The translations under genes and the position numbers were made by a program. Below are positions 236 to 58,133 of a DNA stretch of 64,000 nucleotides, piece by piece. Below the pieces are notes generated by a model that was not told the origin of the DNA, made no database searches, and saw only the letters and a program-made list of their open reading frames with translations. Location of the stretch: assembly GCA_035403225.1 (NCBI GenBank), contig DAONET010000001.1:52281-116280 (forward strand), written 5' to 3'. Numbering within the stretch: position 1 is the stretch's first letter; the number at the start of each line of letters is the position of its first letter. Source of the DNA: Bacteroidales bacterium. GTDB lineage: Bacteria > Bacteroidota > Bacteroidia > Bacteroidales > FEN-979.

Positions 236-1456
236 TTGAACACAGAATATTTCATTGCCAGGCGAATGGTTTCACGGGGAAGGACAGGCTTTTCCCGCCC
301 TATCGTGTACATTTCGGTCGTCAGCATTGCGTTGGGACTGGCTGTCATGTTCATGTCGATCGTGATCCTGACAGGGTTTCAAAAGGCAATCCGGGAGAAG
401 GTAATTGGTTTTGGCGGGCACATCCAGGTCTCTCATTTCGACCTGACCCAATCGCTGGAGCCCATCCCCCTGACCATCACCCCGGGAATGATGGACTCGC
501 TACGCCGTATCGACGGGGTAACTCATCTGCAGATATTTTCCACCAAAGCAGGCATCATCAAAGCCCATGGAGAGATCCAGGGAGTGGTGCTGAAAGGGGT
601 AGGTCCCGATTACGACTGGTCGTTCTTCCGTGATAAAATGGTTTCAGGGAATGTCTGCTCCATCCCCGATACCGGGAAAAGCGACCAGGTCATCCTGTCG
701 AAGACCATGGCAGACCTGCTGAAACTCAAGACCGGCGACAATCTCCGGATGTATTTCATCTCGGGCGAGAATGTGCTGGGACGGAAGTTTCTCATCTCCG
801 GGATTTACAATTCGGGGATGGAAGATTTTGATAAAATGTATGTGATCGGCGACATCCGTCACATCCAGAAAATAAACCGGTGGGAACCCAACCAGGTCGG
901 CGGGGTTGAGATCCTGATCAATGATTTCGACCGGCTGGACCAGATCGGTGACGAAGTGTACCGCAACATCGGGTATTCCATGAACTCCTCGACCATTCGT
1001 CAGCTATACCCCCAGATCTTCGACTGGCTTGACCTGCAAGACATGAATGTCGTCATCATCCTTGTGCTGATGATCATGGTCTCGGGCATCACCATGATCT
1101 CCACCCTGCTGATCATGGTTCTGGAACGAACCCGCATGATAGGTGTCCTCAAGGCTCTCGGGATGCGAAACAAAGGAATCCGGAAGATCTTCCTGTACAA
1201 CTCGGTCTTTATCACCGGCGCCGGTGTCATCCTGGGAAATATCATCGGCTTCACCCTTTCGATCCTGCAACTCCGTTTCGGTTTCCTCAAACTACCGGTT
1301 GAATCGTATTATGTCTCGGTGGTTCCGATTAACCTGAACTGGTTTCACCTCCTGACCCTCAATGTAGCCACGATGGTAGTATGTTTTCTGATGCTCATCA
1401 TCCCATCGATGATCGTCACCCGGGTGACGCCGGTAAAAGCGATCCGGTTCGATTGA
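236..1456 (+). CDS. FtsX/LolC/LolE-family ABC transporter permease (lipoprotein-release-like)
   Basis: 406-aa ORF with a TTG start. It has the N-terminal FIARR..SR motif plus TM1, a large periplasmic loop, and a C-terminal 3-TM FtsX domain (ERTRMIGVLKALGMRNKGIRKIF). Confidence 0.8.
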   Translation: MNTEYFIARRMVSRGRTGFSRPIVYISVVSIALGLAVMFMSIVILTGFQKAIREKVIGFGGHIQVSHFDLTQSLEPIPLTITPGMMDSLRRIDGVTHLQIFSTKAGIIKAHGEIQGVVLKGVGPDYDWSFFRDKMVSGNVCSIPDTGKSDQVILSKTMADLLKLKTGDNLRMYFISGENVLGRKFLISGIYNSGMEDFDKMYVIGDIRHIQKINRWEPNQVGGVEILINDFDRLDQIGDEVYRNIGYSMNSSTIRQLYPQIFDWLDLQDMNVVIILVLMIMVSGITMISTLLIMVLERTRMIGVLKALGMRNKGIRKIFLYNSVFITGAGVILGNIIGFTLSILQLRFGFLKLPVESYYVSVVPINLNWFHLLTLNVATMVVCFLMLIIPSMIVTRVTPVKAIRFD

Positions 1457-38536: not shown

Positions 38537-39898
38537 ATGTCAACCAAAAAGTACATCTATCTCTTTGGCGGGATTCTCGTAATCGCTGTCATACTCTATT
38601 TTATCTTTGCCAAACCTGCACAAACAGGACAGGTATCCGTGAAAGTCAAAAAGGGCAAGTTCCCTATTGAAGTGACGACTACGGGAGAGTTGATCGCCAA
38701 ACGGTCGGAAAAAATCTACGGTCCTGAAGGACTGCGCCAGATCCAGATCTGGCAGGTCAAAATCTCTGATATCATTCCCGATGGTACTGTCGTTGATTCA
38801 GGCGATTATGTCGCCACCCTCGATCGTACCGAGATCTCCAACAAGATCAAAGATGAAGAGACGAACCTGGAAAAACTCGAATCTCAAATGACCAAAACCA
38901 GGCTGGATACCTCTCTGACACTCCGCAGTGCCAGGGATGAACTGGTCAACCTCGCCTTCAACCTGGAACAGAAAAAAATCGAGCTTGAACAATCAAAGTA
39001 TGAACCACCTGCCACCATCCGGCAGGTACAGATCGAACTTGAAAAGGGGCAGCGTGGACTGGAACAGGCACAGGAGAATTATAAGCTCCGCCTGAAAAAA
39101 GCTGTAGCCGATATGGTGGAAGTCTCGGCTTCCTACAACCAGGCTAAACGCAAGCTTGAACAATTCAGGAGCGTGCTGGGATCCTTCACAGTTTCTGCTC
39201 CCAAGTCGGGGATGGTGATCTACAAAAGAAACTGGGACGGCAATAAACAGGGAATAGGCTCAACAGTCAGTTCCTGGGATAATATTATCGCCGAACTTCC
39301 CGATCTTTCCGAGATGATCTCCAAGACGTATGTCAACGAAATCGACATCAGTAAGATCAAAGTCGGCCAGCCCGTAACGATCGGAATCGATGCCTTCCCA
39401 GAGAAAAAATTCACCGGAAAGGTCACCATGGTGGCTAACATCGGGGAACAGCTGCAGAGCACCAACGCCAAAGTCTTTGAGGTGAACATCCTCATTAAAG
39501 AGTTCGACTCCATCCTCCGTCCTGCCATGACAACCAAGAATACCATCATCACGGCGATCATTGACAGCGTATTGTTCGTACCCATCGAAGGGATCTTCAA
39601 TGAAGATTCCATTTCCTTTGTTTACAAAAAAGATGGAGCCGGCATTGTGAAACAGCAAGTGGTGGTAGGCATGAGCAACGACAATGAGATCATCGTCCGG
39701 GCCGGGTTGACAGAAGACGATGAGATTTTCCTGGTTCCTCCCAAGGACTCGGAAAAAATGAAATTGAAAAAACTTGATCCATCCATTCTGAAGAAATTTG
39801 ACACCCCTGGTGCACAAGCTCCTTCAAAGAATGACTCCAACGTCAAAAAACCCCTGCCAGGTCCCCCACCCACCGGAAGGAAGAATAAGCGTTCATAA
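38537..39898 (+). CDS. HlyD/MacA-type periplasmic adaptor (membrane fusion) protein
   Basis: 453 aa with an N-terminal TM anchor, a long coiled-coil hairpin, then a beta-barrel domain (GQPVTIGIDAFPEKKFTGKVTMVA). Confidence 0.8.
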   Translation: MSTKKYIYLFGGILVIAVILYFIFAKPAQTGQVSVKVKKGKFPIEVTTTGELIAKRSEKIYGPEGLRQIQIWQVKISDIIPDGTVVDSGDYVATLDRTEISNKIKDEETNLEKLESQMTKTRLDTSLTLRSARDELVNLAFNLEQKKIELEQSKYEPPATIRQVQIELEKGQRGLEQAQENYKLRLKKAVADMVEVSASYNQAKRKLEQFRSVLGSFTVSAPKSGMVIYKRNWDGNKQGIGSTVSSWDNIIAELPDLSEMISKTYVNEIDISKIKVGQPVTIGIDAFPEKKFTGKVTMVANIGEQLQSTNAKVFEVNILIKEFDSILRPAMTTKNTIITAIIDSVLFVPIEGIFNEDSISFVYKKDGAGIVKQQVVVGMSNDNEIIVRAGLTEDDEIFLVPPKDSEKMKLKKLDPSILKKFDTPGAQAPSKNDSNVKKPLPGPPPTGRKNKRS

Positions 39899-39915
39899 TT
39901 AATCAACTTTAATTA

Positions 39916-41310
39916 TTGCCTGTGTTTCAGCGTTATCTTTACATTCTGAACATCTCCCTGGAAGCGGTTTTTCTCAACAAATTCCGTTCAGTGCTCACGG
40001 CGTTGGGCATCATCTTCGGAGTATCGGCCGTGATTGCCATGATGGCGATCGGCAATGGAGCCAAGAAAGAAATCCTTGACCAGATGAAGCTTGTCGGGGT
40101 CAATAATATCATCATCATGCCGATTTCGGACAAGAATAAAAGCGCTTCCGGCGAAAGCAGCAGTAGTAGTTCGGAGTCGACAGAGAGCACCCAGCAGAAC
40201 GATGATAAAGCCCCTAAAAAGTTCTCTCCCGGCCTGACCCTGAAGGATGCGGAAAGCATCAAACAGATCATCCCCACCGTCGATCGCGTTTCTCCTGAAG
40301 TGATTTACAACGTAGATGTGATCAAGGACGGCGTAAGATCGCCCCTGAAGCTTTCAGGCGTCACCCCTGACTTCTTTTACGTATTCAACCTGGATCTTCA
40401 ATCGGGAGAGATGTTCAATGAAGAACAGCTCCGGGATGGCAAACCGGTGTGCATCATCGGCCCTACCCTGCAGTCGAAATTCTTCCCCAAAGAAAACCCG
40501 ATCGGAAAAGAAATCAAATGCGGCAATATCTGGCTTCGCGTGATCGGCGTGCTGAAGAAAAGGGATGTTTCGCAGTCTTCCATTAATGACCTGGGAATAT
40601 CTGATTATAACAATTCGATCTATGCTCCCATCCAGACACTTTTCCGGAGGTACAAAGACCGGGCCTTGATTACCGCCTCCACGATCAGCGGACAGGGAGG
40701 GGTGATTTACAGCGGCAATTATGCGATTGCCTTTGGAGGAGAAGAAACAGGCATTGAAAAGAACCAGATCGACAAGATTGTAGTCCAGGTGAAAGAATCC
40801 TCCCAAATAACCGCCACCACAGAGATCCTGAAAAAAATGATCAACCGTCGTCACGTGGGAGTGAAAGATGTGGAAATAAAAGTCCCGGAATTATTACTGA
40901 AACAGGAACAACGGACCAAAGACATCTTTAACATCGTGTTGGGAGCCATTGCCGGCATCTCGTTGCTGGTCGGCGGTATCGGGATCATGAACATCATGCT
41001 GGCCTCTGTCATGGAAAGGATCAAAGAGATCGGCATCCGCCAGGCCATCGGAGCTACCAAACGCGATATCAAACTGCAGTTTCTGACCGAAGCCACCCTG
41101 TTAAGTATCACCGGTGGTCTCATCGGGATCATCTTCGGTCTCGCTCTGTCGAAAATCATTATGGAGGTGAGCGGGATTCTCACGATTATCTCTCCGCTTT
41201 CCATCATTATCTCTTTTGGTGTTTCAGCATCCGTTGGGATCATCTTTGGTTATATGCCCGCCAACAGGGCTGCCCGGCAAGATCCGGTCATCTCGTTACG
41301 ATATGAATAA
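39916..41310 (+). CDS. MacB/FtsX-type ABC transporter permease (no fused ATPase)
   Basis: 464 aa with a TTG start. It has a MacB_PCD-like periplasmic domain between TM1 and TM2, and a C-terminal FtsX domain (ERIKEIGIRQAIGATKRDI...PANRAARQDPV..LRYE). A Ser-rich insert (SASGESSSSSSESTEST) is present. Confidence 0.8.
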   Translation: MPVFQRYLYILNISLEAVFLNKFRSVLTALGIIFGVSAVIAMMAIGNGAKKEILDQMKLVGVNNIIIMPISDKNKSASGESSSSSSESTESTQQNDDKAPKKFSPGLTLKDAESIKQIIPTVDRVSPEVIYNVDVIKDGVRSPLKLSGVTPDFFYVFNLDLQSGEMFNEEQLRDGKPVCIIGPTLQSKFFPKENPIGKEIKCGNIWLRVIGVLKKRDVSQSSINDLGISDYNNSIYAPIQTLFRRYKDRALITASTISGQGGVIYSGNYAIAFGGEETGIEKNQIDKIVVQVKESSQITATTEILKKMINRRHVGVKDVEIKVPELLLKQEQRTKDIFNIVLGAIAGISLLVGGIGIMNIMLASVMERIKEIGIRQAIGATKRDIKLQFLTEATLLSITGGLIGIIFGLALSKIIMEVSGILTIISPLSIIISFGVSASVGIIFGYMPANRAARQDPVISLRYE

Positions 41311-41329
41311 TTTTTAACGGACCCATCTC

Positions 41330-42847
41330 ATGAAAGGAATAAAATCTCTCGTGTCACTCGTCGTATTGTCGCTGGTTTCCTGCACAGTTTCCGCCCAGGT
41401 TCAGCAACGGATTCTGAAGTTGGAAGATGCCATTTCCATCGCCCAGAGCCAATCACCCGACGCCCTGAAAACCCGGCAAACATTCCGGAGCAGTTTCTGG
41501 GAATACAAATCGTTCCGGGCCCAATACCTCCCGTCGATGAGCGCCGATGCTACCGTTCCCTTGCTTCAGCGCGCCATCAACACCTATTATACCGAAGACG
41601 GAAAGGTCAAATACGTCCGCCAGGAGTACCTTAACAACAATGCCGAGTTATCCATCTCACAGCGGCTGGGCTTCACCGGTGGATCCATCTACCTAAACTC
41701 CGGACTAGGCAGAATTGACGACCTCCCCATCACCGATTCGACGTTCTCCTATACCTCTACGCCCATTTATATCGGAATCCGTCAACCGATCTTCCAGTTT
41801 AACGCTTATCGCTGGGACAGAAAGATCAAACCTCTCCAGTATGAACAAGCTAAAAAAGAGTACCTGGAAGGACTTGAACAAATCTCGATCAATGCCACCA
41901 CCTATTTTTTCAATCTTCTCAGCGCTCAGATCCAAAAAAAGATTGCAGAGGCCACCATGTCAAATTACGATACGCTGTACCGTATTGCCAAAGGACGTTA
42001 TCAGCTGGGCAAGATCGCGGAAAATGACCTTCTCTCGCTGGAGCTGAATTATCTTAGCGCTCAGGCAAAGCTCGAAACGGCCTCTATCGACCTCGACATG
42101 GCTCTTTTCCGTTTCAGGTCGTACCTGAGAATCAAAGACACCATCCCCGTCATGTTGATTCCTCCGACAAATATCCATTTCTTTACAGTCAACCCCTTAG
42201 AGGCGGTCGATTTTGCAAAAACCAATTCTTCCTCCTTCATCGATTACGAAACACGAATCCTGCAAGCTGCCCGTGACGTGCGACAGGCCAAGATGGACGG
42301 CCGATTTGATGCCAACCTCTCAGCAGGATACGGGCTGAACAAGACGGCTGTTTATAACGAGTATACCCACACCTCTCCTACTATCGAGGATGTTTATAAG
42401 AATCCTGAAGAATCGCAACAAGTTTCTCTTACTTTATCCATCCCGATCTATGACTGGGGAGTAGCCCGCGGGCAGATCAAGATCGCCGAAGCACAGCAGG
42501 AAATCGTGCTGAATGAAGTGGAACAAGAGAAAATCGATTTCGAACGAAACCTGTATATCAAAGTCCTTCAGTTCAACATGCAGGAAAACCAGCTCCGTAT
42601 CGCAGCCAAATCAGATACTGTGGCCCGGAAAACCTATGAAGTGGTGAAAGGCCGCTACCTGATCGGCAAGCCCGTGACTATCCTGGAGCTGAACGACGCA
42701 CAGATCAATACCGACAATGCGCAACTCCAATTCTACAATGCCCTGGAAACATACTGGACCAATTATTTTCAACTTCGGAAACTGACGCTTTTCGATTTCG
42801 GCAACAACAGACCGATCATGTTCAACATAAAAGATATTCAGTTGTAA
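41330..42847 (+). CDS. TolC-family outer membrane efflux protein
   Basis: 505 aa with a signal peptide, the N-terminal L.L.DAI..A...SPD motif, and two OEP repeats. Confidence 0.85.
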   Translation: MKGIKSLVSLVVLSLVSCTVSAQVQQRILKLEDAISIAQSQSPDALKTRQTFRSSFWEYKSFRAQYLPSMSADATVPLLQRAINTYYTEDGKVKYVRQEYLNNNAELSISQRLGFTGGSIYLNSGLGRIDDLPITDSTFSYTSTPIYIGIRQPIFQFNAYRWDRKIKPLQYEQAKKEYLEGLEQISINATTYFFNLLSAQIQKKIAEATMSNYDTLYRIAKGRYQLGKIAENDLLSLELNYLSAQAKLETASIDLDMALFRFRSYLRIKDTIPVMLIPPTNIHFFTVNPLEAVDFAKTNSSSFIDYETRILQAARDVRQAKMDGRFDANLSAGYGLNKTAVYNEYTHTSPTIEDVYKNPEESQQVSLTLSIPIYDWGVARGQIKIAEAQQEIVLNEVEQEKIDFERNLYIKVLQFNMQENQLRIAAKSDTVARKTYEVVKGRYLIGKPVTILELNDAQINTDNAQLQFYNALETYWTNYFQLRKLTLFDFGNNRPIMFNIKDIQL

Positions 42848-44416: not shown

Positions 44417-45604
44417 GTGCCCACTGCATCATTCACCACCGGACCGCGTCCTGCCAAAGTTTGTTGCCTGTTGTTTCTGGTGATATTATGCCGGTATCAG
44501 GTCATGGCTCAGGGAGAGCACAAACTTTTCAATCAGAATCTCTATATAGAAAGCAAGGCCTATTACGGGTTTCTGTATGCCCATCACCTGGAGTTGGAGC
44601 GGTACAACGCACATTTTCCGGCGTTTGAGCTGAATGTTCAACAACTTACTTTCGGGAAGCATGAATGGGAACGTGCCTTTAATTATCCGATCATCGGCGT
44701 CGGATTATGGTATTCGTCGTTAGGCGGTTCCGACGAGATAGGACGGGCTTTTGCGCTCATGCCGTACATCAACTTCCCGTTGTTTAAGGAGAATAATTTC
44801 AGTTTCAATTTCCGCTTTGCCATCGGTCCCGGTTATCTGACGAACCGGTTTAACCGGATCTCCAACTTCAAGAACCTGGCCATTGGCTCGCATCTGAATG
44901 CAGCCGTCAACATGATGTTTGAAGCCCGTTATCGTGTCAACACCTATTTTTCCACCTCTGCCGGCATCTGCCTGCAACATTTCTCCAACGGATCATTGAA
45001 AATGCCCAATTACGGGTTGAATGCCCCGATGTTGAGCCTGGGATTGAGTTTCAAACCGGCCCGGGAAAACAGGTTTATCTCCGACCGTTTCTACCCTCCG
45101 GTGGAGCCCTACTCGGCCATTCTCACTCATTCCATTGAATTTGACGTCGGCGTTTCGGCCGGATACAAGAATATGAAGGAGGTGCTCGGTAAGAATTATT
45201 ACGTGTTTCATGTTTACGAGAACACTTTTTACCGGGTAAGCCGGAAAAGCAAATGGGGTATCGGCTTGGATGCATCTTATGATCCTTCGCATATTGATAT
45301 TCTGAAGAAGAAGGGGACCATCGTCGAGAACAACACGGAAATAATCCGTCCGGGCATCAATGCGGCTTATCAGTTGGTTCTCTCGCGTGTCGGTTTCATC
45401 TTCAACATCGGGGCATACCTCGGTGGAGCGGAACGCAGTAATGGTCCGCTGTATGAAAAGATTTCTGTCCAGTATCAGTTCTCCGACGACTTTTTTGCCA
45501 ATGTCATGCTGAAAGTTCATTTCGGAAGGGCCGATTACATCGGGTGGGGAATTGGTTATAAATTTGATTGGACGTTTGATAAGGGAAAAGCGCATAAACC
45601 ATGA
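44417..45604 (+). CDS. PagL-like acyloxyacyl hydrolase / lipid A 3-O-deacylase family outer-membrane protein
   Basis: 395 aa with beta-barrel-like alternating sequence and a His-x-Ser-Asn-Gly motif (LQHFSNGSLKMPNYGLN) resembling the PagL catalytic His/Ser strand. The GTG start is uncertain. Confidence 0.55.
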   Translation: MPTASFTTGPRPAKVCCLLFLVILCRYQVMAQGEHKLFNQNLYIESKAYYGFLYAHHLELERYNAHFPAFELNVQQLTFGKHEWERAFNYPIIGVGLWYSSLGGSDEIGRAFALMPYINFPLFKENNFSFNFRFAIGPGYLTNRFNRISNFKNLAIGSHLNAAVNMMFEARYRVNTYFSTSAGICLQHFSNGSLKMPNYGLNAPMLSLGLSFKPARENRFISDRFYPPVEPYSAILTHSIEFDVGVSAGYKNMKEVLGKNYYVFHVYENTFYRVSRKSKWGIGLDASYDPSHIDILKKKGTIVENNTEIIRPGINAAYQLVLSRVGFIFNIGAYLGGAERSNGPLYEKISVQYQFSDDFFANVMLKVHFGRADYIGWGIGYKFDWTFDKGKAHKP

Positions 45605-46341
45605 AACGTATTCCGCTATTCATCATCATGTTGATATTTTCCCTGGCTATGTTCAGCGGGTGTGAAAAATCATCGGAGAACTGCCTGAGCAACACCGGAA
45701 AGATCATTCGCCAGGTTCGTTTCCTGGAGCCGTTTGATTCGATCAGCATGAACGATAATGTGAACGTGATCCTTTCCTACGACTCAACTTGCGGGGTGAC
45801 TGTTGAAGCCGGAGAGCACATCATCGATGGCATCAAGACGGAGGTGTCGGACGGGAACCTGATCATCCACAATAACAATATCTGCAACTGGACGCGTGAT
45901 TACAGCAAGCCGATCAATGTTTATATCTCTTCGGATTACTTGTGGAAGATCCGCTATAATTCCTCGGGCGACCTGACTTCGGCCACCATTCTCCCCTACG
46001 ATTCCCTGAAGGTGGAAGTATGGGGAGGTTGCGGGACAATAGAATTGAGTCTGAACATCGTTCAGGGGTATTTCAGCGAGAACCTGGGCACTGCTGATTT
46101 CCGGCTTCACGGGAGTTGTGGTATATGCAATATTTATTCGGGAGAATATGGTCCTTTTCATTGTGAGGACCTCGACATCTCCTATTGCTTCATCACGTCG
46201 TCAGGTTCCAATGATTGCTGGGTGAATGCATCGAGGATTCTGGGAGCGACGATCACCTCCATCGGCAACGTGTACTACACCGGCCAGCCCGATTCCGTTT
46301 ATTCACACATCACGGGTGAAGGCCGTCTGATCCACTATTGA
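45601..46341 (+). CDS. Lipoprotein with DUF2807 / head GIN (autotransporter-adhesin-head-like) domain
   Basis: 246 aa with a lipobox (AMFSGC) and repetitive beta-solenoid-like GSGD/GSG segments. Its ATG overlaps the upstream stop in ATGA (45601..45604). Confidence 0.55.
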   Translation: MKRIPLFIIMLIFSLAMFSGCEKSSENCLSNTGKIIRQVRFLEPFDSISMNDNVNVILSYDSTCGVTVEAGEHIIDGIKTEVSDGNLIIHNNNICNWTRDYSKPINVYISSDYLWKIRYNSSGDLTSATILPYDSLKVEVWGGCGTIELSLNIVQGYFSENLGTADFRLHGSCGICNIYSGEYGPFHCEDLDISYCFITSSGSNDCWVNASRILGATITSIGNVYYTGQPDSVYSHITGEGRLIHY

Positions 46342-47817
46342 TCAGTATGCACGGGCAAAGAGCACCCGCTGAGTAGAAGGTCTTCCCGAATAGATGCACT
46401 TACCGTTTTCCTTGGGGTTATTCAGCGGGATAACACGGATAGTAGCCTTGGTTTCTTCTTTGATCTTCTCTTCGGTTTCCGTAGTGCCATCCCAATGGGC
46501 GGAGATAAAGCCGCCGGTGGTGTCGAGCGTACGTTTGAACTCTTCCCAGGTATCCACCCGGAAGGTATTGTTTTCCCGGAAGTCGTAAGCCTTGGCAAAC
46601 AGGTTTTTCTGAATCTGATCCAGCAGGTTCACGATCTTCTTTTCGATATCGGTAATCTGGAGGACATCTTTTTCGAGGGTATCGCGGCGGGCGACTTCCA
46701 CGGTGCCGCTTTCCAGGTCGCGGGGTCCCACCGTGATGCGGACAGGTACGCCTTTAAACTCATATTCGGAAAACTTCCAGCCGGGTTTATGGGTTTCCTG
46801 GTCATCGTATTTTACCCGGATACCTTTGGCTTCGAGTGCTTGTTTGACCGGGAGGATTTTTTCGGTAATAGCCGCCAGCTGATCGCTGGTTTTAAACACG
46901 GGTACGATAACAACCTGTACCGGTGCCAACTTCGGAGGCAGCACCAGTCCGTTATCATCAGAATGCGACATGATCAGTGCGCCCATCAACCGGGTACTTA
47001 CGCCCCAGGAGGTAGCCCATACATAATCCATCTGGTTATCCTGGTTGAGGAACTTCACATCGAAGGCCTTGGCAAAGTTTTGTCCCAAGAAGTGGCTGGT
47101 TCCGGCCTGCAGTGCTTTCCCGTCCTGCATCAGCGCTTCAATAGCATAGGTCTCGACAGCGCCGGCAAAGCGTTCATTCGGGCTCTTGATTCCTTTTATC
47201 ACCGGGATAGCCATCCAGTTTTCCACAAAATCGGCATAAACATTCAGCATGGTCTCTGCTTCTGCGATAGCTTCTTCCTTGGTGGCGTGTGCGGTATGGC
47301 CTTCCTGCCAGAGAAATTCTGCTGTCCGGAGGAACAATCTTGTCCTCATTTCCCAGCGAACCACGTTGGCCCATTGGTTGATCTTCAGGGGGAGGTCACG
47401 GTATGAATGGATCCAGTTTTTATAGGTATCCCAGATGATGGTTTCGGAGGTTGGTCTGACGATCAATTCTTCTTCCAGACGTGCATCTTCATCCACCACC
47501 ACTCCTTTTCCATCGGGAGATGTTTTGAGCCGGTAATGGGTCACTACGGCACATTCTTTGGCGAAGCCTTCTACATGATGAGCTTCGCGGCTGAAGAACG
47601 ATTTCGGGATGAAAATGGGGAAATAAGCGTTTGAGTGACCGGTGTCTTTAAACATTTTATCCAGGACACCCTGGATCTTTTCCCAGATAGCATAACCGTA
47701 AGGTTTGATGACCATACATCCTCTTACTGCCGAATTCTCGGCAAGGTCGGCCTTGATTACCAAGTCATTATACCATTGTGCGTAATTATCTGAGCGGGTA
47801 GATAAATCTTTAGCCAT
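46342..47817 (-). CDS. proS: Proline--tRNA ligase (archaeal/eukaryote-like type)
   Basis: 491 aa with class II aaRS motifs ([29 protein letters not shown]) and a C-terminal zinc-less ProRS-C domain ending in Y. Confidence 0.95.
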
Positions 47818-47869
47818 TTTACAGTTTGGTATGATATTTGCTGTTTTCTTATTACTTAAAAGAACAAGG

Positions 47870-47877
47870 CAAAATTA
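47870..47877 (-). promoter_or_regulatory. Bacteroidota -7 promoter box TAATTTTG for proS
   Basis: The reverse complement of caaaatta matches TAnnTTTG, 52 nt upstream of the proS ATG. Confidence 0.5.
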
Positions 47878-47924
47878 AACAAAATATGGGAGTCATTACT
47901 AAAATAAAGAGTACCAAAACATTC

Positions 47925-47932
47925 AAAGGAGG
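47925..47932 (+). promoter_or_regulatory. Shine-Dalgarno-like ribosome binding site AAAGGAGG
   Basis: Lies 7 nt upstream of ATG 47940, which supports 47940 as the true start of the low-complexity lipoprotein. The track start at 47838 (TTG) lies in the promoter region. Confidence 0.6.
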
Positions 47933-47939
47933 TATCATC

Positions 47940-49496
47940 ATGAACCGCATTGTTATCATTACCGTCACTTTACTGGGTCTTTCCCTGTCAGGATGCAAGA
48001 CACAGCAAAACACTGCCGGCGTGAATTACGATGATGCATATGTTAAAACATCCGTCACGCAGGATTATTCACGGCCAGCCACTACCACTCCCCAAGACGT
48101 AGTCACTGTAAATGATTCGACGGCAGCTGTCAAATCCGCCACTGTAGGTGAGGATTACAGCGATTATTCTTATTCATCGAGGGTCAAGCGTTTTCATAAT
48201 GCCGAGAAGGAAGCCGGGTACTTCGATCCTGTTTATACCGACACGGAGAATTACGACAACACGGCCACCAATGAATCCGACGCCGGATCTTCTTCTTCCC
48301 CGGATGTAAACATTTACCTGGGTACCGGTTGGGGTGGTTATTCTCCCTATACCACTATTGGTTTTTCCTATGGTTGGGGATATGACCCCTGGAACTATGG
48401 TTATTACGGATATCCTTATTCATACTGGTATTCCTCTTACTATTGGGATCCCTTCTTCTTCGGACACCATTACTATCCTTACTATTACCCGTATAATTAC
48501 TACGGATACTGGAACGGATACTGGAACGGTTATTGGGATGGTCATAACGAATACTGGGATCCTCACGGATGGGACGGCCATCATGGAGGCCCTGGTGAAG
48601 GAGGATATTACGGTCATCGTACCTTTGTAGGCAACGGCTCATCGGGGCATTACCGTCCTGATGTCTCTGCACGATTGAAACGTGCCAGCATCACCGGCAC
48701 TCCGGAGGGCAATGATGGCACTAAACCGAGAGTGCTGCCCAACGGCACCGGGAACAATCAGCGGGTAGATCCGACCAATGTCACCACTCAGCGGGCTGTT
48801 ACGGAAACACGCTCCAACACGGTTGAACGTTCAACAGGAACCACTACTCCGGCCCAGCGTTCCAATACGGCGGTGAGGACCAATACGAACAACCAGCAAC
48901 AGTATAAGTACACCCGTCCGTCCAGCGAACGTCAGGCCCCTGCCCAGAGACAGAATACCGGGTACCAGCGTCAGAACACCCAGCCGAATCCGAAGTACGC
49001 CAGACCGGGGACAGGACAGCAAGCTACCCGGACGACTACCGAGAACTACTCTTCTCCGCTTTACCGGCAGCCTAAATCCAGCCAGGAGTACCTGAGTCCG
49101 AGGTCACAGTCGACAACCACCCGCCAGACTTCAACCCAAGGTGTGAGAACCAATAGTCAGCAGAGACAGAGCACTCCCACCCAGGGGACGCAGAGAACCT
49201 ATACTACCCCGCAGAAGCAGAATGTGAACCCGGGGAACACTCCCGGCCGTAGTAATACTCCGGGATATTCGACCCCGCAGCGCCAGAACAATTCGGGATC
49301 TTCGAGAGGCAGTTACACTCCCTCCTCCCGTTCAGGCCAGAGTTATTCAACCCCGTCGCGGTCGGGTTCAACCAGGTCTTCCTATTCTGCTCCTTCACGG
49401 TCGGGCGGAAGTTCTTCATCAGCTCCGTCGCGCTCAGGCGGAAGTTCTTCTTCCCGTTCAAGTGGCAGCGGTTCATCCAACGGTCATAGAAAATAA
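47940..49496 (+). CDS. Extreme low-complexity lipoprotein (Tyr/Trp/Gly block plus basic Thr/Gln/Arg/Ser tail); function unknown
   Basis: The signal peptide MNRIVIITVTLLGLSLSGC carries the lipobox LSGC. The downstream sequence is compositionally extreme but retains an open frame for 518 codons. The tandem peptide repeats differ only at synonymous sites (see repeat features), which argues for real translation. Confidence 0.7.
   Translation: MNRIVIITVTLLGLSLSGCKTQQNTAGVNYDDAYVKTSVTQDYSRPATTTPQDVVTVNDSTAAVKSATVGEDYSDYSYSSRVKRFHNAEKEAGYFDPVYTDTENYDNTATNESDAGSSSSPDVNIYLGTGWGGYSPYTTIGFSYGWGYDPWNYGYYGYPYSYWYSSYYWDPFFFGHHYYPYYYPYNYYGYWNGYWNGYWDGHNEYWDPHGWDGHHGGPGEGGYYGHRTFVGNGSSGHYRPDVSARLKRASITGTPEGNDGTKPRVLPNGTGNNQRVDPTNVTTQRAVTETRSNTVERSTGTTTPAQRSNTAVRTNTNNQQQYKYTRPSSERQAPAQRQNTGYQRQNTQPNPKYARPGTGQQATRTTTENYSSPLYRQPKSSQEYLSPRSQSTTTRQTSTQGVRTNSQQRQSTPTQGTQRTYTTPQKQNVNPGNTPGRSNTPGYSTPQRQNNSGSSRGSYTPSSRSGQSYSTPSRSGSTRSSYSAPSRSGGSSSSAPSRSGGSSSSRSSGSGSSNGHRK
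48504..48539 (+). repeat. 3 x 12-nt in-frame tandem repeat encoding GYWN-GYWN-GYWD
   Basis: GGATACTGGAAC occurs twice perfectly (48504..48527), followed by the degenerate GGTTATTGGGAT. The repeat is codon-aligned with the 47940 frame. Confidence 0.9.
49389..49454 (+). repeat. 2 x 33-nt in-frame tandem repeat encoding APSRSGGSSSS twice
   Basis: The units 49389..49421 and 49422..49454 encode identical peptides but differ at 6 third-codon positions. More degenerate (S/T)PSRSG copies lie just upstream. Confidence 0.9.
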
Positions 49497-49512
49497 CTAA
49501 TATCATATCCGT

Positions 49513-50973
49513 ATGAAAAAACTTATTGCACTGTCGCTGACCTTATTGACCGCTGTCAGCCTTCATGCACAAGATTCCTGGGATGCCTTACGGTATTCCA
49601 GGATTTCTTTTAGCGGAACGAGCAGATATATAGGCCTTGGAGGATCTTCCGGAGCGGTGGGCGCCGATCTCTCCCTGCTGGCCACCAACCCGGCCGGACT
49701 CGGATTTTACAAAAGCTTCGAGTTTACGTTCACTCCCGGGGTTTCGGTCACTAACACCTGGTCGTCATACAATGACGCTCCGAAGAACAGAGATTATCAA
49801 TCGAATTTTGCCTTTAACAACATGGGATTCGTTTTTTCCTTCCCATCTAAAAAATCGGATTCAAAAAAAGGATTCCGGAACTTCAATATCGGTTTCGCCA
49901 TGAACCGTCAAAATGATTATAACAGCGCTACCCTCATCGCCGGCGACAACCATGCCAGTTCGCTGGTGAATGTTTTTACCGACGAGTTGAACCTTTCGGG
50001 AGTTTCGCAGCCTAATATCAGGGCTGCTTTCCCCTTCGATATCGGACTGGCTTATGACTGTCAGCTGATCTATTTCGACAGTCTCAACAACCAATATACC
50101 TGTGACATGCCCCAAGGAGGCGTTTATCAGGAGAAATCCATTATCACCAGCGGTTCTCTCACCGAGTATGACATCTCCGCAGGAGGGAATATCGCCGATA
50201 AAGTGTACATTGGTTTAACCATGGGGATAGCAAGTCTCCATTATGAGCAGGATAACTACTATTATGAATTTGATTCCGGTGATTCCATTCCTTACTTCAA
50301 GTCCATGAAGTATCAATATGGTTTCACCACCGGAGGAACCGGGATCAATTTCAAAGCCGGGGTCATTTACCGTCCGGTTGAATGGTTCAGAGCGGGTCTT
50401 GCCTTTCATTCTCCCACCTGGTATGCTGACATGGAAGACACTTATTCATCGGCCATGGCTGCACGGTACGACAGCATCCTGAATCCCGAAACGCAGTACT
50501 CGCCTTATGGATATTTCAATTATGAGATGAAAACGCCATACCGGGTGATTGGGAGTGTGGCATTCTTTATCGGACAGCGGGGTTTTATCAGCGGGGAGTA
50601 TGAGTACGTGAATTACAGCCAGGCTAAGTTCCATGATGAGGACGGGTCATTCCGTGAAGTGAACAAAGACATAAGTTCCAACTTCAAGGCTCCCCTCAAC
50701 TTCCGACTGGGAAGTGAATGGGTATTCGGACCATTCCGGGTCAGGGGCGGATTCGGATACAGCGGGAAGCCTGAAACATCGGGTATCACCGGGGTAAAAT
50801 ACACAGCCAGCTGCGGAGCAGGTTATTTCTCCAGGCATTTCTTCACCGATGTTGCTTATCAGTGGACGGGCATGAATGGAGAGTATTACCTGTATCAATC
50901 CGATCTGGTCAACGCAGCCGACATCTGGCAACAGAGTTCTTTAATCACCGCCACGCTCGGTTTCCGTCTTTAA
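49513..50973 (+). CDS. FadL/OmpP1/PorV-like outer-membrane beta-barrel protein
   Basis: 486 aa with the signal peptide (LTAVSLHAQ). The N-terminal plug-like motif RYIGLGGSSGAVGADLSLLATNPAGLGFY resembles FadL-family hatch regions. The rest has alternating beta-strand patterning. It starts 16 nt after the lipoprotein stop. Confidence 0.55.
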   Translation: MKKLIALSLTLLTAVSLHAQDSWDALRYSRISFSGTSRYIGLGGSSGAVGADLSLLATNPAGLGFYKSFEFTFTPGVSVTNTWSSYNDAPKNRDYQSNFAFNNMGFVFSFPSKKSDSKKGFRNFNIGFAMNRQNDYNSATLIAGDNHASSLVNVFTDELNLSGVSQPNIRAAFPFDIGLAYDCQLIYFDSLNNQYTCDMPQGGVYQEKSIITSGSLTEYDISAGGNIADKVYIGLTMGIASLHYEQDNYYYEFDSGDSIPYFKSMKYQYGFTTGGTGINFKAGVIYRPVEWFRAGLAFHSPTWYADMEDTYSSAMAARYDSILNPETQYSPYGYFNYEMKTPYRVIGSVAFFIGQRGFISGEYEYVNYSQAKFHDEDGSFREVNKDISSNFKAPLNFRLGSEWVFGPFRVRGGFGYSGKPETSGITGVKYTASCGAGYFSRHFFTDVAYQWTGMNGEYYLYQSDLVNAADIWQQSSLITATLGFRL

Positions 50974-52514
50974 CGAAGGTGTTTTTTCACCCTGTTCAAA
51001 CCAGCCCTGGCCTTCTGACCAAGGCTGGTTTTGTATTCCTTGTAATCCATGGAAAGGCAGAGACGGTAGCTGGAATCGGCTGATGCATATTCATGCTGCT
51101 GTTCGTGGATGATTCCCATCTGGAGCGCTGCTCCGGCGGCATAGTACTGTGGTAATCCCTGCCCATTTTTTACGGCCAGCCGGAAATTTGTCAAGGCACG
51201 CTGACTTTGTTGCAGCGACTGGTAAATCCGTCCAAGCCGGTAGTAATACTCGGCCAGGTCGCTTTTATTCCGGATATACTGTGTCAGGCTGTTATTGAGC
51301 AATGTCTGCAGTGCGCGCTGGTAATAACCTCCATCGAAAAGGAGCCGGGCTTTCAGGAGGGGTACACAAGGCATCAGCCCGGAGGAGGCTTCGCCGGCGG
51401 CTTGTTTGTCCTCATCCACTTCCAGACTTCCCTGTGACAAGGCCTGCCGTATATATTTGCGATACGAGGCGGTATCCCCGGCCAGCAGGGAAGCCCAGGC
51501 AATTTTCTGCCAGGAAGATTTGATGTAGTTGGTTCCCCTGAATCCGGCAAGGAATTTCCGGAATGAGCCGGCGGCACCGGGATCGAGGTTATTCAGGCGG
51601 GCTGTTCCGGCCTGGAAATCGAGGAAAGAAAGGCGGTAGTCGCTTTCATTTCCGCGGTGAGAGAGGACGGCCAATGCCCGGGCATTATGGCCCGTTTTCA
51701 GGTAGATATTGGCTTTTGCATAGATGACCAGCGGACTTTGTGCGTAAAGACGGAGGTCGGGGTCGGTGTCGAACTTGGCTATGACAGCCATGGCACAGTC
51801 CGGATTGTTCCGGAGATTGACATTAATCAGCGCCGCCACGATACATGCGGGGCTCTTCAGGGAACAGATGAAAGGGTCACCGCCCTGGTAGTCTATTATC
51901 CGCTGGATGTGGGCAGCGCCCTGTTCGATGTTGCCTCCCAGTCCGGCCATACTGGCGAGCCATTTATAGTTATCGGGAATGATTCCGGCGAGGACATTCA
52001 TGATCCCCAGTCCAAGCCGATCGGGCATGAAAGCCGGGTAGCGGGCATGGTTTTCTTTCAGCAGTTCGTTGGCTCTTTTCAGTTCGAGCCCGGCTGTGGC
52101 GTATTCCCGGAACTTCAACCTCGCGAAGGCCCATTGGATATTCAGGTCGGCGAGGCAGAAGCGATAATAGGGTGATGACTCCATACCTTTCGACAGCAGG
52201 TCGATCCGTTTTTTCATCAGATCACGGTGCTGGTTGAAATAGGACAGGTCTTCGCCGGTAAAAAGGATCAGGAAATCAATATAGTTTTCGATATAAACCG
52301 GTATCAGGTTATCCGGGTTAAGGATTTTTTCCTGGCGGAGTAGGTTTCCGGCTTCGTTAAAGCGGAACATCATCACGGCATCCCATGCCTGCCGGCAGAC
52401 AGGATTAAACTCATATTTCTGGCTACGGGCGGGAAGGTATAAAAGAACGAGGGCGCTTGTCAGGAAAAGGATCTTCCTGCAAAACGCCCCCGGATGTTGA
52501 ATAGAAAGGATCAT
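50970..52514 (-). CDS. Secreted all-helical TPR-like protein, function unknown
   Basis: 514 aa with an N-terminal signal or anchor (ILFLTSALVLLYLPARSQ) and helical-repeat character with TPR-like segments near the C-terminus (YYYRLGRIYQSLQQSQRAL). Its ATG overlaps the upstream Zn-ribbon gene stop by 4 nt. Confidence 0.55.
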   Translation of the reverse strand: MILSIQHPGAFCRKILFLTSALVLLYLPARSQKYEFNPVCRQAWDAVMMFRFNEAGNLLRQEKILNPDNLIPVYIENYIDFLILFTGEDLSYFNQHRDLMKKRIDLLSKGMESSPYYRFCLADLNIQWAFARLKFREYATAGLELKRANELLKENHARYPAFMPDRLGLGIMNVLAGIIPDNYKWLASMAGLGGNIEQGAAHIQRIIDYQGGDPFICSLKSPACIVAALINVNLRNNPDCAMAVIAKFDTDPDLRLYAQSPLVIYAKANIYLKTGHNARALAVLSHRGNESDYRLSFLDFQAGTARLNNLDPGAAGSFRKFLAGFRGTNYIKSSWQKIAWASLLAGDTASYRKYIRQALSQGSLEVDEDKQAAGEASSGLMPCVPLLKARLLFDGGYYQRALQTLLNNSLTQYIRNKSDLAEYYYRLGRIYQSLQQSQRALTNFRLAVKNGQGLPQYYAAGAALQMGIIHEQQHEYASADSSYRLCLSMDYKEYKTSLGQKARAGLNRVKKHLR

Positions 52515-55201: not shown

Positions 55202-56263
55202 ATGCGGCTGATACATTTTTTATTATTGCCCCTTTCATTTTGTTATGGGCTTTTGATGATGGTTCGTAACAAATTATATGACATCGGACTTTTCAGATCC
55301 GCATCATTCGATATTCCAATCATTTGTGTAGGAAATTTATCTGCCGGCGGCACGGGAAAGACGCCTCATATCGAGTATCTGATCAGGCTGTTGAAAGATC
55401 GTTTTATGGTTGCGACTCTAAGCCGGGGTTATGGTCGTGACAGTTCAGGTTATCTGGTCGCATCGAAATGTTCAAACTATAAATATATCGGTGATGAGCC
55501 CATGCAACTGATCAAGAAATTTCCCGATATAAAAGTAGCTGTTGACGCCAAACGGGAACATGGCATCCGTTCCCTGGTGAGCAAAAATCCCGGATTAAAT
55601 GTGATCCTTCTCGACGATGCCTTTCAGCACCGTTCCGTGAAGCCGGGTTTATCGATCCTGCTTACAGACTACCGCCATCTATACACCGAAGATCATGTCC
55701 TTCCTTCGGGCATGTTACGTGAATTTCCTTCCGGAGCCAAGCGGGCGGATATCATCATTGTCACCAAAACCCCCAAAGTATTTTCTCCCATTACCCGGCG
55801 GCGCATCATCGAGGAGTTGAAACCAACCCCCAGGCAACACCTGTTCTTTTCGTATATCCGGTATTGTGATCCCGTTGCGGCTTTTGATTATCCCATCCCC
55901 TTCCAGCATCGGTACTCGTACATCATTATTTTTTCGGGTATCGCGGATGACGAACCGCTGAGCGAGCATCTGGAGCGAAAATGCACGGAACTGGTCCGCA
56001 TGAAATTCCGGGATCATCATCCATACACCCTCGATGATGTTTTATCGATCCAGAAAAAATATGATGATCTGCCCACCCAGAAAAAAGCCATTGTAACCAC
56101 CGAAAAAGATTTGATGCGGCTGCGTTCACCGGAGTTCACCCAGATCCTGAAAACACTGCCGATCTTCTACATCCCCATCGTCATGGAGTTCCACGGAGCC
56201 GATGGAGAGCAGTTCGACAAAACGGTGCTGACGTACCTGGAGACATCCTCCAAGGGTCACTGA
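55202..56263 (+). CDS. lpxK: Tetraacyldisaccharide 4'-kinase
   Basis: 353 aa with an N-terminal membrane helix and the LpxK P-loop VGNLSAGGTGKTP. Confidence 0.9.
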   Translation: MRLIHFLLLPLSFCYGLLMMVRNKLYDIGLFRSASFDIPIICVGNLSAGGTGKTPHIEYLIRLLKDRFMVATLSRGYGRDSSGYLVASKCSNYKYIGDEPMQLIKKFPDIKVAVDAKREHGIRSLVSKNPGLNVILLDDAFQHRSVKPGLSILLTDYRHLYTEDHVLPSGMLREFPSGAKRADIIIVTKTPKVFSPITRRRIIEELKPTPRQHLFFSYIRYCDPVAAFDYPIPFQHRYSYIIIFSGIADDEPLSEHLERKCTELVRMKFRDHHPYTLDDVLSIQKKYDDLPTQKKAIVTTEKDLMRLRSPEFTQILKTLPIFYIPIVMEFHGADGEQFDKTVLTYLETSSKGH

Positions 56264-56757
56264 TGTCCTGGTATCACCCGGAGAACTTCCTGACCGACGG
56301 TCTTCAGTTTCCACTTATTTCCGATATGATACCGTTGCAGTTTCAAACTCTTTAACAGATACCCGGAGGCAATAAGTCCGGCCCCGATTCCCACGTACAG
56401 CGGGTCGATGACCGGCCGGTTATCGGTGAGGTTGTTGATGATCGTGATACCAATCAGCGTGAATCCTGCCGCAATGATGGTACCTCCCCTTCCCTTCCAC
56501 CGGGGATATGTCCTCCAAATGTATTTTACTTCGGTCAGGCGAATAGGGAACCTGCCATCAATCGTGAACCCGGAGTCGGAAACAGACGTGATCACAGCCG
56601 TCCGTGCAGCTGTGTCGGAAACAGTCTGAAAAATAATCTGTTCTCCGGGTTGGTAATAAAACCATTTTCCCGATCCCAGCTTTTCAAGCATCAGTATCTG
56701 CTGAGGAAAAAGAGAAAGGGTACAGAGCAAAAACGCAAGAGTCAGGATCGGCTTCAA
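56257..56757 (-). CDS. Hypothetical secreted/membrane protein
   Basis: 166 aa with a TTG start and a signal peptide (LAFLLCTLSLFPQQ). A small beta-rich domain is followed by two TM helices. It has its own TATCTTTG box upstream. Confidence 0.5.
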   Translation of the reverse strand: MKPILTLAFLLCTLSLFPQQILMLEKLGSGKWFYYQPGEQIIFQTVSDTAARTAVITSVSDSGFTIDGRFPIRLTEVKYIWRTYPRWKGRGGTIIAAGFTLIGITIINNLTDNRPVIDPLYVGIGAGLIASGYLLKSLKLQRYHIGNKWKLKTVGQEVLRVIPGHQ

Positions 56758-56775
56758 TGTCAGCGATTTTCAAAT

Positions 56776-56783
56776 CAAAGATA
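56776..56783 (-). promoter_or_regulatory. Bacteroidota -7 promoter box TATCTTTG for the 56257..56757 gene
   Basis: The reverse complement of caaagata matches TAnnTTTG, 18 nt upstream of the TTG start at 56757. Confidence 0.5.
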
Positions 56784-56821
56784 AACAATTTTCCGGGTCC
56801 TGATGTCCGGCAGGTTTTCAG

Positions 56822-56829
56822 TACCTTTG
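56822..56829 (+). promoter_or_regulatory. Possible -7 promoter box TACCTTTG for the LpxR-like gene
   Basis: Exact TAnnTTTG match, but only 8 nt upstream of ATG 56838. This would give a near-leaderless mRNA. Confidence 0.4.
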
Positions 56830-56837
56830 ACGCCTCA

Positions 56838-58133
56838 ATGAGACTGAGTTTAACCATATTACTATCGGCAGTAGTGTTGATCAGCTGCAACGGGCCAGCG
56901 CATCGGTCCGAGGATGATTTTTCGGATGATTTATCAAGACCTGAGATTATTTGGCCGGAAACACCCGGGATGATCAAGGCCGGGCATCATCCGGACAGTC
57001 TGTGTACACCATCCTCATTCATTGAAAGAGAGAAAAACCGGCCCCGGTCTGGTTCATTTTCCTCGCCGGAATCGGAGGAAATCGTGAAGCAAAGAGGTCC
57101 TGATACGTTGCTGATCAGGAAACTGAATCGTTTACGGGCGCTTCGGATCGAACCGGATCTGAACGAACCGTTAAGCCGGGATTACCTGTTCAGCCGGATT
57201 GAAAGCGACGGTTTCCCTTCGCTGATCGAACTCAGTCCTGAACGTTACTTTCAACTCCAGGTCGACAATGATCTTTTGGACAACACAGACCGTTTTTACA
57301 CCAATGGTGTCCGTCTGGAATACATCTGTCCGGCGTTTAGCAGTTCGCCGGTAAACAAGCTGATGCTTCCTTACTGGAGACCGGGCACCAACTATTATGG
57401 TCTGGCGCTGGTTCAGAATATGTACACCTCGTCCAAAACCAAAGTCGGTGGCATCCTGTACGGCGACCGTCCTTATGCCGCGTATCTGTATCTTTCGTCA
57501 TTTAAGATCACCAACGACCCGGTTCATCACCTCCGGCAAAGCAGTGAGATCCAATTGGGGATCCTCGGTCCGGCATCATTGGGAAGTACCATGCAGACCT
57601 GGTTTCATATGACCGTTCCGACGAACGATAAACCACTGGGGTGGGAGTATCAGATCGCCAATGATCTGTTGCTGAATTACCGGGTATCATACGATCTGGG
57701 GTTGATCTCTCATCCGTATGCCGAGCTTAATCTGACCGGAACAGCCATTGCGGGAACCGTTTACGACAAGATCAACGGCGGCCTCTGTTTCAGGACCGGC
57801 TTGCTGAATCCCTATTTTACCGAGTTGGGTTTCAGCAAGAAGCAGAAAAACCGGCGGGCCGGGATGAGGGATCTGCAGTGTTACTTTTATACCAAAGCAT
57901 CAGGCACCCTGGTAGGATACGATGCCACCCTGCAGGGAGGGGTATTCAACCACGAGAGCGTATACACGATCCCGGCCGACAGTCTCTCGCGGCTTCAGTT
58001 CGAAGGTTCGGCAGGCTTTGTTTTCACTTATGGCGGTGCCAGGCTGGATGTGGAGCAACACGCTATCAGTCCTGAGTTCCATGGTGGCTGGTGGCACTTT
58101 TGGATGGGAATCGGGCTGGGCTTCAGTTTCTGA
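56838..58133 (+). CDS. LpxR-family (DUF2219) lipid A deacylase-like outer-membrane lipoprotein with an N-terminal extension
   Basis: The start is chosen at MRLSLTILLSAVVLISC (lipobox LISC). The core motif VDNDLLDNTDRFYTNGVRLEY matches the LpxR DND...TDR.YT.G signature. About 140 aa precede the barrel. Confidence 0.65.
   Translation: MRLSLTILLSAVVLISCNGPAHRSEDDFSDDLSRPEIIWPETPGMIKAGHHPDSLCTPSSFIEREKNRPRSGSFSSPESEEIVKQRGPDTLLIRKLNRLRALRIEPDLNEPLSRDYLFSRIESDGFPSLIELSPERYFQLQVDNDLLDNTDRFYTNGVRLEYICPAFSSSPVNKLMLPYWRPGTNYYGLALVQNMYTSSKTKVGGILYGDRPYAAYLYLSSFKITNDPVHHLRQSSEIQLGILGPASLGSTMQTWFHMTVPTNDKPLGWEYQIANDLLLNYRVSYDLGLISHPYAELNLTGTAIAGTVYDKINGGLCFRTGLLNPYFTELGFSKKQKNRRAGMRDLQCYFYTKASGTLVGYDATLQGGVFNHESVYTIPADSLSRLQFEGSAGFVFTYGGARLDVEQHAISPEFHGGWWHFWMGIGLGFSF

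Follow-up and report, generated by a model that had tools for sequence, protein, structure and literature searches.

Barrels of the FadL fold are already known to dock lipoproteins in Bacteroidota, and the BamG-BamH pair is the nearest precedent for the locus described here. The outer-membrane biology of this phylum has recently been shown to depart from the Escherichia coli paradigm: the barrel assembly machinery (BAM) contains BamG, an essential FadL homologue, which binds the surface lipoprotein BamH (PMC12578637; PMC12611786). The conserved N-terminus of BamG, extended by 10-12 residues, passes through a lateral opening, and the BamG loops that bind BamH are not conserved (PMC12578637); the conserved N-terminus of BamH is wedged into BamG, and the paralogues Bt1785/Bt1786 (BamG2/BamH2) form a putative operon (PMC12578637; PMC12611786). 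The lumen of the FadL fold is occupied by an N-terminal tail (PMC12611786). The present analysis concerns another pair of adjacent genes, one for a lipoprotein of extreme composition and one for a predicted FadL-fold barrel, in a window of 64,000 nucleotides (nt), this being the whole stretch of DNA that was analysed, from a Bacteroidales bacterium (FEN-979; assembly GCA_035403225.1, contig DAONET010000001.1, positions 52,281-116,280 of the forward strand).

Enterobacteria offer a further comparison, RcsF, a lipoprotein with a disordered segment that, like the product of the present locus, is considered together with an outer-membrane barrel, in its case in complexes with OmpA, OmpC and OmpF; RcsF differs in its short linker, in its folded signalling domain and in its use of general porins, whereas the window lipoprotein is predicted to be disordered over almost all of its 500 or so residues and its barrel is dedicated and co-encoded. 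The original prediction for this locus had stated that no characterised function was known for such a pairing; none was found for the window pair itself, whereas the combination of barrel and lipoprotein does have a precedent in BamG-BamH. In the literature searched, neither a Tyr-rich disordered lipoprotein nor such a FadL partner was found in Bacteroidota beyond the BAM papers.

A gene pair conserved beside proS

In the window, the barrel gene starts exactly 16 nt after the stop codon of the lipoprotein gene; the window scan found no terminator-like site between the two genes, and one 34 nt past the barrel stop. Spacing and terminator-like sites therefore agree with a single compact unit, which is what the original prediction had proposed as an operon, and its other primary readings (the lipoprotein open reading frame (ORF), the LSGC lipobox, the ribosome-binding-site-like AAAGGAGG and a signal-peptide protein 16 nt further on) were likewise confirmed.

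Conservation was followed in a scan of one genome per species, which provided 80 loci (the best 80 of 172 confirmed), all from Bacteroidales, Prolixibacteraceae or Lentimicrobiaceae-type metagenome-assembled genomes. Wherever a species-representative locus includes the upstream DNA, the barrel gene is directly preceded by a lipoprotein-family ORF, which ends 17-72 nt before it, and throughout the loci measured the two genes are co-oriented and 16-126 nt apart. The gene proS, for prolyl-tRNA synthetase, lies directly upstream in divergent orientation in all 86 measurable loci and also, among the distant contexts, in L084-L090 and L092. The spacer between proS and the lipoprotein gene measures 87-155 nt (median 120; 86 loci) and carries TAnnTTTG on the proS strand in 80 of these 86; an RNA element in this conserved proS region was rejected, since Rfam gave no match at E ≤ 1.

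Within the close clade, the gene order runs MazG, PagL and DUF2807, then proS, the pair, a tetratricopeptide repeat (TPR) protein, Zn-ribbon and NIF3, and then a response regulator and LpxK; the pairing by itself is weak evidence there, because the wider neighbourhood is also syntenic. The most divergent lipoprotein homologues led to three distant contexts, and barrels 35-41% identical to that of the window led to five more. The arrangement proS(-), lipoprotein ORF(+), barrel(+) is kept in eight of nine distant contexts, with outer genes that vary or are unrelated, and the upstream ORFs of the five barrel-derived contexts match the lipoprotein hidden Markov model (HMM) with E values of 1e-62 to 3e-25. 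The exception, L091 (5001..6545), is a 514-residue barrel with neither proS nor partner, located among acyl carrier protein, dienelactone-hydrolase-like and Rieske genes; it shares 66% identity with the paired barrel of L092, which comes from the same metagenome, and appears to be a recent duplicate taken up into a catabolic or transport context. The original prediction had named a lipoprotein without orthologues, or a pairing absent from related genomes, as findings that would speak against it; what was found is 129 homologues of the lipoprotein and a pairing kept in distant genomes with changed neighbours. The two proteins probably work together.

A lipoprotein family with an aromatic block and a cationic tail

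The lipoprotein product starts MNRIVIITVTLLGLSLSGC, and its composition changes markedly along its length. Residues 136-235 contain 26% Y, 20% G, 9% W, 8% P and 7% H, with only two I/L/V/M residues among them, and residues 236-518 (283 residues) contain 18% S, 15% T, 11% R, 10% Q, 9% G, 8% P and 8% N; the charged residues of this tail are 32 R and 7 K (39 basic) against 3 D and 6 E (9 acidic). The block of about 100 Tyr/Trp/Gly/His residues and the long polar tail of the original prediction are thus both present. Set beside the window's other long ORFs, 44 in number, the lipoprotein reaches a peak Y+W content per 100 residues of 38%, where theirs averages 8.7% (sd 3.1, maximum 18%), and an overall I/L/V/M content of 7.5%, where theirs is 26.3% (sd 3.6); its composition is an extreme outlier, far from chance. 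The first 130 residues or so, earlier taken to be ordinary, are also aliphatic-poor and have mostly low AlphaFold confidence, except for a helix at about residues 78-100.

AlphaFold, supplied with a 59-sequence alignment, gave the lipoprotein a mean predicted local distance difference test score (pLDDT) of 49 and a predicted template modelling score (pTM) of 0.23. Only the signal peptide and the short helical stretch just mentioned are confident (helices at 78-86 and 97-100, with pLDDT 85-88 over residues 80-100), and the aromatic/glycine block lies at pLDDT 35-45. Low pLDDT alone is no proof of disorder; in combination with the composition it renders a stable fold improbable, and the lipoprotein is probably almost wholly disordered, in line with the earlier proposal.

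No match to the lipoprotein was found in Pfam (E ≤ 0.1), NCBIfam or PDB sequences. Two homologues carry the labels "DUF5320 domain-containing protein" and "uncharacterized membrane protein YgcG", which were taken as low-complexity artefacts because the window lipoprotein matches no Pfam family at E ≤ 0.1. Nor was there a Pfam match to a C-terminal domain of type IX secretion (T9SS; Por_Secre_tail, CHU_C), the C-terminus being Ser/Gly-rich and ending in GHRK, and the protein was rejected as T9SS cargo for want of such a sorting domain. Judged by its sequence alignments, the lipoprotein is nevertheless a real family despite matching no domain model, with a single architecture kept down to about 25% identity and near-invariant residues D31, D32, Y34, Y78, F85 and Y94. 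Motif, Cys and charge counts were taken over 80 orthologues, and counts behind the Cys over the 71 that are lipidated. A DDVY motif occurs in 80/80 and an SRIKRF-type motif in 71/80, followed by an aromatic/Gly block of about 100 residues family-wide (median 37.5% Y/W/F and 21% G), the length of which ranges from 82 to 143 residues among orthologues and suggests repeat expansion and contraction. A YYGxR motif then stands between the block and a tail of about 255 residues, 66% of which are S/T/N/Q/G/P and the net charge of which has a median of +25 (range +15 to +37). Conserved islands recur in this tail, namely QxxYxYxR, QPxPRYxRP, YSSPxYRQPKSSQEY and repeated YSxPSRS, with SSQEY-type motifs in 74/80, PRYxRP in 74/80 and YSxPSRS in 75/80 orthologues; a Gly/Ser run and then two or three basic residues form the C-terminus in 79/80. 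A partner of about 500 residues with a block that is 35-45% aromatic and a tail of charge +25 is unlike any characterised envelope protein.

In 71 of the 80 orthologues, a Cys is placed within a lipobox or precedes DDVY by no more than 16 residues; the window lipoprotein has LSGC with Cys19. The Cys is not universal in the family: the other nine have none and show instead an end of signal-peptidase-I type, ...SGSFA|QQ, and the segment that follows is conserved even in these Cys-less proteins (QQNK...DDVYY). Surface lipoproteins of the Bacteroidota BAM each carry two or more acidic residues just after the Cys (PMC12578637). The window lipoprotein reads C-KTQQNT at this place, and an acidic residue at positions +1 to +6 occurs in 0/71 lipidated orthologues. 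Because this export signal is missing throughout and 9/80 orthologues lack the Cys, surface display, one of the proposals of the original prediction, is less favoured than a partner that faces the periplasm and docks on the barrel. Polyanion binding, its other proposal, would fit the conserved positive charge of the tail.

Automated gene calls split the lipoprotein gene in some long-read assemblies (L002/L003, 4941..6014; L088, 4083..5979). An intact ORF of 495 residues is present in L002 despite the split call, and the L088 gene appears to be truly frameshifted or mis-assembled. Split by gene callers and uncovered by domain databases, the gene is invisible to routine annotation.

A predicted FadL-fold barrel family

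With a 32-homologue alignment, AlphaFold modelled the second protein at a pLDDT of 87.9 and a pTM of 0.81, and the model is read as a 14-stranded barrel whose turns on the periplasmic side are short and whose loops on the extracellular side are long, with a helical segment at the N-terminus (residues 20-68); the predicted secondary-structure string shows a break in the third strand at residues 136-137. Foldseek against the PDB placed the BamG chains 9hiv_F, 9n2d_B and 9hjm_F at the top (E 1.4e-18 to 2e-16), which derive from the BAM complexes of B. thetaiotaomicron, F. johnsoniae and P. gingivalis, followed by E. coli FadL (3e-16) and then by the P. aeruginosa FadL homologue and TbuX/TodX (1e-14 to 1e-12). 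The Foldseek probability is 1.00 against FadL, TodX, TbuX and BamG; identity to the FadL-type structural matches is 8-14%, and BamG leads FadL only narrowly. At the level of the model, the FadL-like reading of the original prediction is confirmed.

In sequence searches, the sole curated match of the window barrel is to Pfam Toluene_X (PF03349) at 13.5 bits, below the cut-off of 29.7, and no match was found in NCBIfam or among PDB sequences; one of the 32 close relatives reaches E 3e-4 against Toluene_X. Many barrels at 35-41% identity pass PF03349, and some are named OmpP1/FadL family transporter. When PDB chain sequences were searched at E ≤ 10, the profile of the close family retrieved no BamG or FadL chain, and the profile of the divergent family retrieved TbuX (7e-5) and, marginally, PorV (0.16), with no BamG. 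BamG orthologues, in contrast, are reported to be detectable by BlastP in essentially all free-living Bacteroidota (PMC12578637), which argues for a separate branch of the FadL superfamily; orthology to the known BamG proteins Bt4367, Fjoh_1412 and that of P. gingivalis was thus rejected on sequence in spite of the top fold matches, and we conclude that this branch differs from BamG, from PorV and from the characterised transporters.

PorV and PorQ resemble the present barrel in being FadL-like Bacteroidota barrels that hold protein partners at the outer membrane, and in the profile alignment PorV also begins with QD... behind its signal peptide and has an NPA motif. However, the fold match to PorV (chain 8gl6_F) is much weaker, with an E value of 1.3e-5 and a template modelling score of 0.33, the sequence match is marginal and the partner has no T9SS C-terminal domain; with no NCBIfam or Pfam match either, identity as PorV, PorQ or PorP(SprF) was rejected.

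In an exhaustive HMMER search, 6,496 representatives of 50%-identity clusters passed E ≤ 1e-3, of which 3,131 also passed E ≤ 1e-30; among the 150 matches listed, almost all are about 480-500 residues long. The barrel family is a second, sequence-distinct FadL-fold family in Bacteroidota, with thousands of such clusters and without a name. Its mature N-terminus, QNExDALRYS...GGTAR...GGAFGALGGD...NPAG, is conserved family-wide; across 32 sequences no variation is seen at N59 or P60, A61 is conserved to at least 90%, and NPA is also found in the divergent set. Assuming cleavage after Ala19, N59/P60 are mature positions 40-41, compared with N33/P34 in E. coli FadL, so that the N-terminus is about seven residues longer than that of FadL up to NPA, and these extra residues are highly conserved. 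A 486-residue ORF elsewhere in the window (29249..30709) was considered as a paralogue of the barrel and rejected, being an M20 peptidase without similarity.

Possible roles of the pair

How the two proteins might cooperate can be proposed only tentatively. The reading that we favour, though with less than even confidence, is that the lipoprotein docks by its N-terminus on the barrel and faces the periplasm, where its block and tail bind anionic envelope material or self-associate. In this scheme, the first protein would be exported by the Sec pathway, usually lipid-anchored and periplasm-facing, and docking would be mediated by the segment TQQ...DDVYY just after the Cys together with the short DYSYSxRIKRF helix, on the model of the N-terminus of BamH in BamG. 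The barrel would then act as the membrane anchor of the disordered protein, which would explain how some orthologues do without lipid. The Tyr/Trp/Gly block and the Arg-rich tail of about 250 residues would reach out beneath the outer membrane and either bind peptidoglycan or phospholipid head groups or self-associate by Tyr/Trp-Arg contacts, and the outcome would be an envelope organising or tethering role. Were such a complex real, FadL-fold barrels would be general protein-docking platforms in Bacteroidota, and the pair would offer a tractable case in which a protein that is disordered yet conserved plays a structural part in the Gram-negative envelope.

Several observations weigh against this docking and tethering proposal. 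The rule from which a periplasmic orientation would follow is empirical and was derived in other Bacteroidota. Conserved columns fall in putative extracellular loops of the barrel, for example PFDIGLAYD at residues of about 174-182, unlike the BamH-binding loops of BamG, and might instead reflect substrate binding or an activity on the cell surface. The partnerless L091 duplicate indicates that the barrel can presumably work alone. Moreover, proS is linked to the two genes as tightly as they are to each other; the short shared spacer beside this essential gene may resist rearrangement and freeze the adjacency, so that frozen synteny round a compact divergent promoter could explain part of the co-conservation.

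The conserved loops would also suit an exporter. The barrel could export or thread the disordered protein outward, much as RcsF passes through porins and secreted amyloid subunits through dedicated barrels, giving a sticky cationic matrix, an adhesin or a polyanion binder; this is unlikely. Substrates threaded through narrow channels are typically disordered and poor in hydrophobic residues, the tail is strongly cationic, and Cys-less orthologues would still be manageable by a dedicated exporter. Set against these points are the export signal missing from every lipidated orthologue, the absence of a T9SS C-terminal domain by Pfam, and a modelled barrel that keeps its N-terminal hatch-like segment with NPA and so presents no obvious polypeptide conduit.

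An uptake role, with the barrel as a FadL-type channel for hydrophobic or aromatic molecules and the partner capturing or passing on the substrate as an accessory in the periplasm or near the membrane, is unlikely as well. The window barrel shares with FadL, TodX and TbuX the fold and the invariant NPA hallmark, its relatives include many that pass Toluene_X and some named as transporters, and the broader family profile matches the toluene channel TbuX (7e-5); the L091 duplicate sits in a classic catabolic setting, and a block that is 35% aromatic could perhaps bind hydrophobic ligands. The window barrel differs from these transporters in its sub-threshold Pfam score, in its dedicated partner gene and in its neighbours, which are proS and housekeeping genes instead of a catabolic operon. 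No characterised FadL transporter with a protein partner turned up in the analysis, and it is not obvious what a cationic tail of about 250 residues and its conserved linear motifs would contribute to handing on a small molecule.

That the pair is a lineage-specific BAM module, the barrel being a BamG-like subunit or paralogue set against BamA and the disordered protein replacing BamH, is decidedly unlikely, although the likeness is real in part: in both of these Bacteroidota systems a lipoprotein accompanies a barrel of the FadL fold, the three top fold matches in the PDB are BamG chains, and the mature N-terminus is strongly conserved in both barrels, the seven or so extra residues being reminiscent of the 10-12 of BamG. 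The fold library holds those three BamG chains and yet neither family profile finds one among PDB sequences, so that no sequence relationship is detectable; the Foldseek margin over FadL is small, with 10-13% identity to all, and the window barrel exceeds the BamG chains in length by about 80-95 residues. Nothing links the window pair to BamA. The partner, for its part, was rejected as BamH-like, having no match to PF14092 (E ≤ 0.1), no surface-export signal and, by prediction, no fold, whereas BamH is a folded, crescent-shaped scaffold. One of the two 2025 BAM papers describes EL3 of Bacteroidota BamA, a flexible, unresolved extracellular loop of 38 residues rich in Tyr, Gly and Asn. The parallel to the aromatic block is compositional only; EL3 belongs to a folded surface protein, whereas the window block comprises 100 residues of a separate protein that probably faces the periplasm. 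In L088, a BamH-domain gene (PF14092; 11670..12980) is situated about 4 kb downstream of the pair; its proximity is probably coincidental, and it means that this genome has a separate BamH.

A bolder idea, in which we place little faith, treats the lipoprotein as a "sticker and spacer" gel or condensate tethered to its dedicated barrel. Comparable to nucleoporins and FUS, the aromatic-glycine repeats and the Arg-rich, Ser/Thr/Asn/Gln-rich spacer would form a phase through multivalent Tyr/Trp-Arg contacts, serving as a structural layer or selective filter beneath the outer membrane or at the mouth of the channel; if true, a conserved envelope component would act by disorder and multivalent contacts and not by a fold.

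Finally, it is very improbable that the genes have no functional link and are neighbours by ancestral synteny beside the essential proS, for although the partner is no more constant a neighbour than proS is, the compact divergent spacer would make rearrangement costly and one barrel duplicate exists without a partner, the genes are co-oriented at short distance with no intervening terminator-like site in the window, their pairing outlasts a complete turnover of the outer genes on both sides, and both products are envelope proteins.

Features and neighbouring genes of the locus

Table 1. Coordinates of the gene pair, its parts and its immediate neighbours in the window.
Feature	Position	Strand	Remark
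proS (prolyl-tRNA synthetase)	46342..47817	-	divergent neighbour of the pair; orthologues with Pfam tRNA-synt_2b, HGTP_anticodon, ProRS-C_1
Divergent spacer between proS and lipoprotein gene	47818..47939	.	promoter-like site 47876-47905 (+), from promoter scan
Shine-Dalgarno-like AAAGGAGG	47924-47931	+	in spacer; precedes lipoprotein ATG at 47940
Lipoprotein gene, 518 residues	47940..49496	+	new family; no Pfam/NCBIfam model
Signal peptide and lipobox LSGC, residues 1-19	47940..47996	+	Cys19, predicted lipidation Cys
N-terminal polar/acidic region, residues 20-135	47997..48344	+	TQQ...DD(V/A)Y right behind Cys
Motif DYSYSSR(I/V)KRF...YFD..YT, residues ~73-100	48156-48239	+	within lipoprotein N-terminal region
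Aromatic/glycine block, residues 136-235	48345..48644	+	by composition; includes GYWN x3
12-nt perfect tandem repeat ACGGATACTGGA, 2.3 copies	48502-48529	+	codes for GYWNGYWNGYW
Cationic polar tail, residues 236-518	48645..49493	+	motifs QQQYKYTRP, NPKYARP, YS(T/A)PSRS, terminal GHRK
Tail motif YSSPLYRQPKSSQEYLSPRSQ, residues 370-390	49047-49109	+	conserved short motif of lipoprotein tail
YS(T/A)PSRS repeats of lipoprotein tail	residues ~469-505	+	from alignments
FadL-fold barrel gene (fold predicted), 486 residues	49513..50973	+	signal peptide residues 1-19, ends ...SLHA|QD
Barrel N-terminal hatch-like segment with NPA motif, residues 20-68	49570-49716	+	from model and alignment
Terminator-like hairpin and T-run	51007..51028	+	consensus match only; inside 3' end of TPR gene
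TPR-repeat protein, 514 residues, signal peptide	50970..52514	-	Pfam TPR_8, TPR_2; convergent with barrel gene

The convergent TPR gene overlaps the end of the barrel gene by 4 nt. It is a neighbour in most Bacteroidales loci; it has no match in 7 full-length loci and none was called in the distant L087, L089, L090 and L092, and it is not core to the unit. Its product faintly and non-significantly resembles the T9SS lipoprotein PorW/SprE (E 0.098).

Lipid A genes flank the pair in the window, namely a PagL-domain gene (395 residues; 44417..45604), LpxK (55202..56263) and LpxR (56757..58133), and related loci also have a PAP2 phosphatase gene next to MazG. This lipid A and envelope-remodelling neighbourhood is kept in the Bacteroidales clade and not in the distant carriers of the pair. 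The PagL-domain gene overlaps by 4 nt a gene for a DUF2807 lipoprotein (246 residues; "putative auto-transporter adhesin head GIN domain"; 45601..46341), and these two genes are conserved together in most related loci. Further away, downstream of gyrB, lies an ordinary-looking efflux operon of MacAB/TolC type (38537..42847), which encodes an HlyD-family adaptor, a MacB-type permease and an outer-membrane factor.

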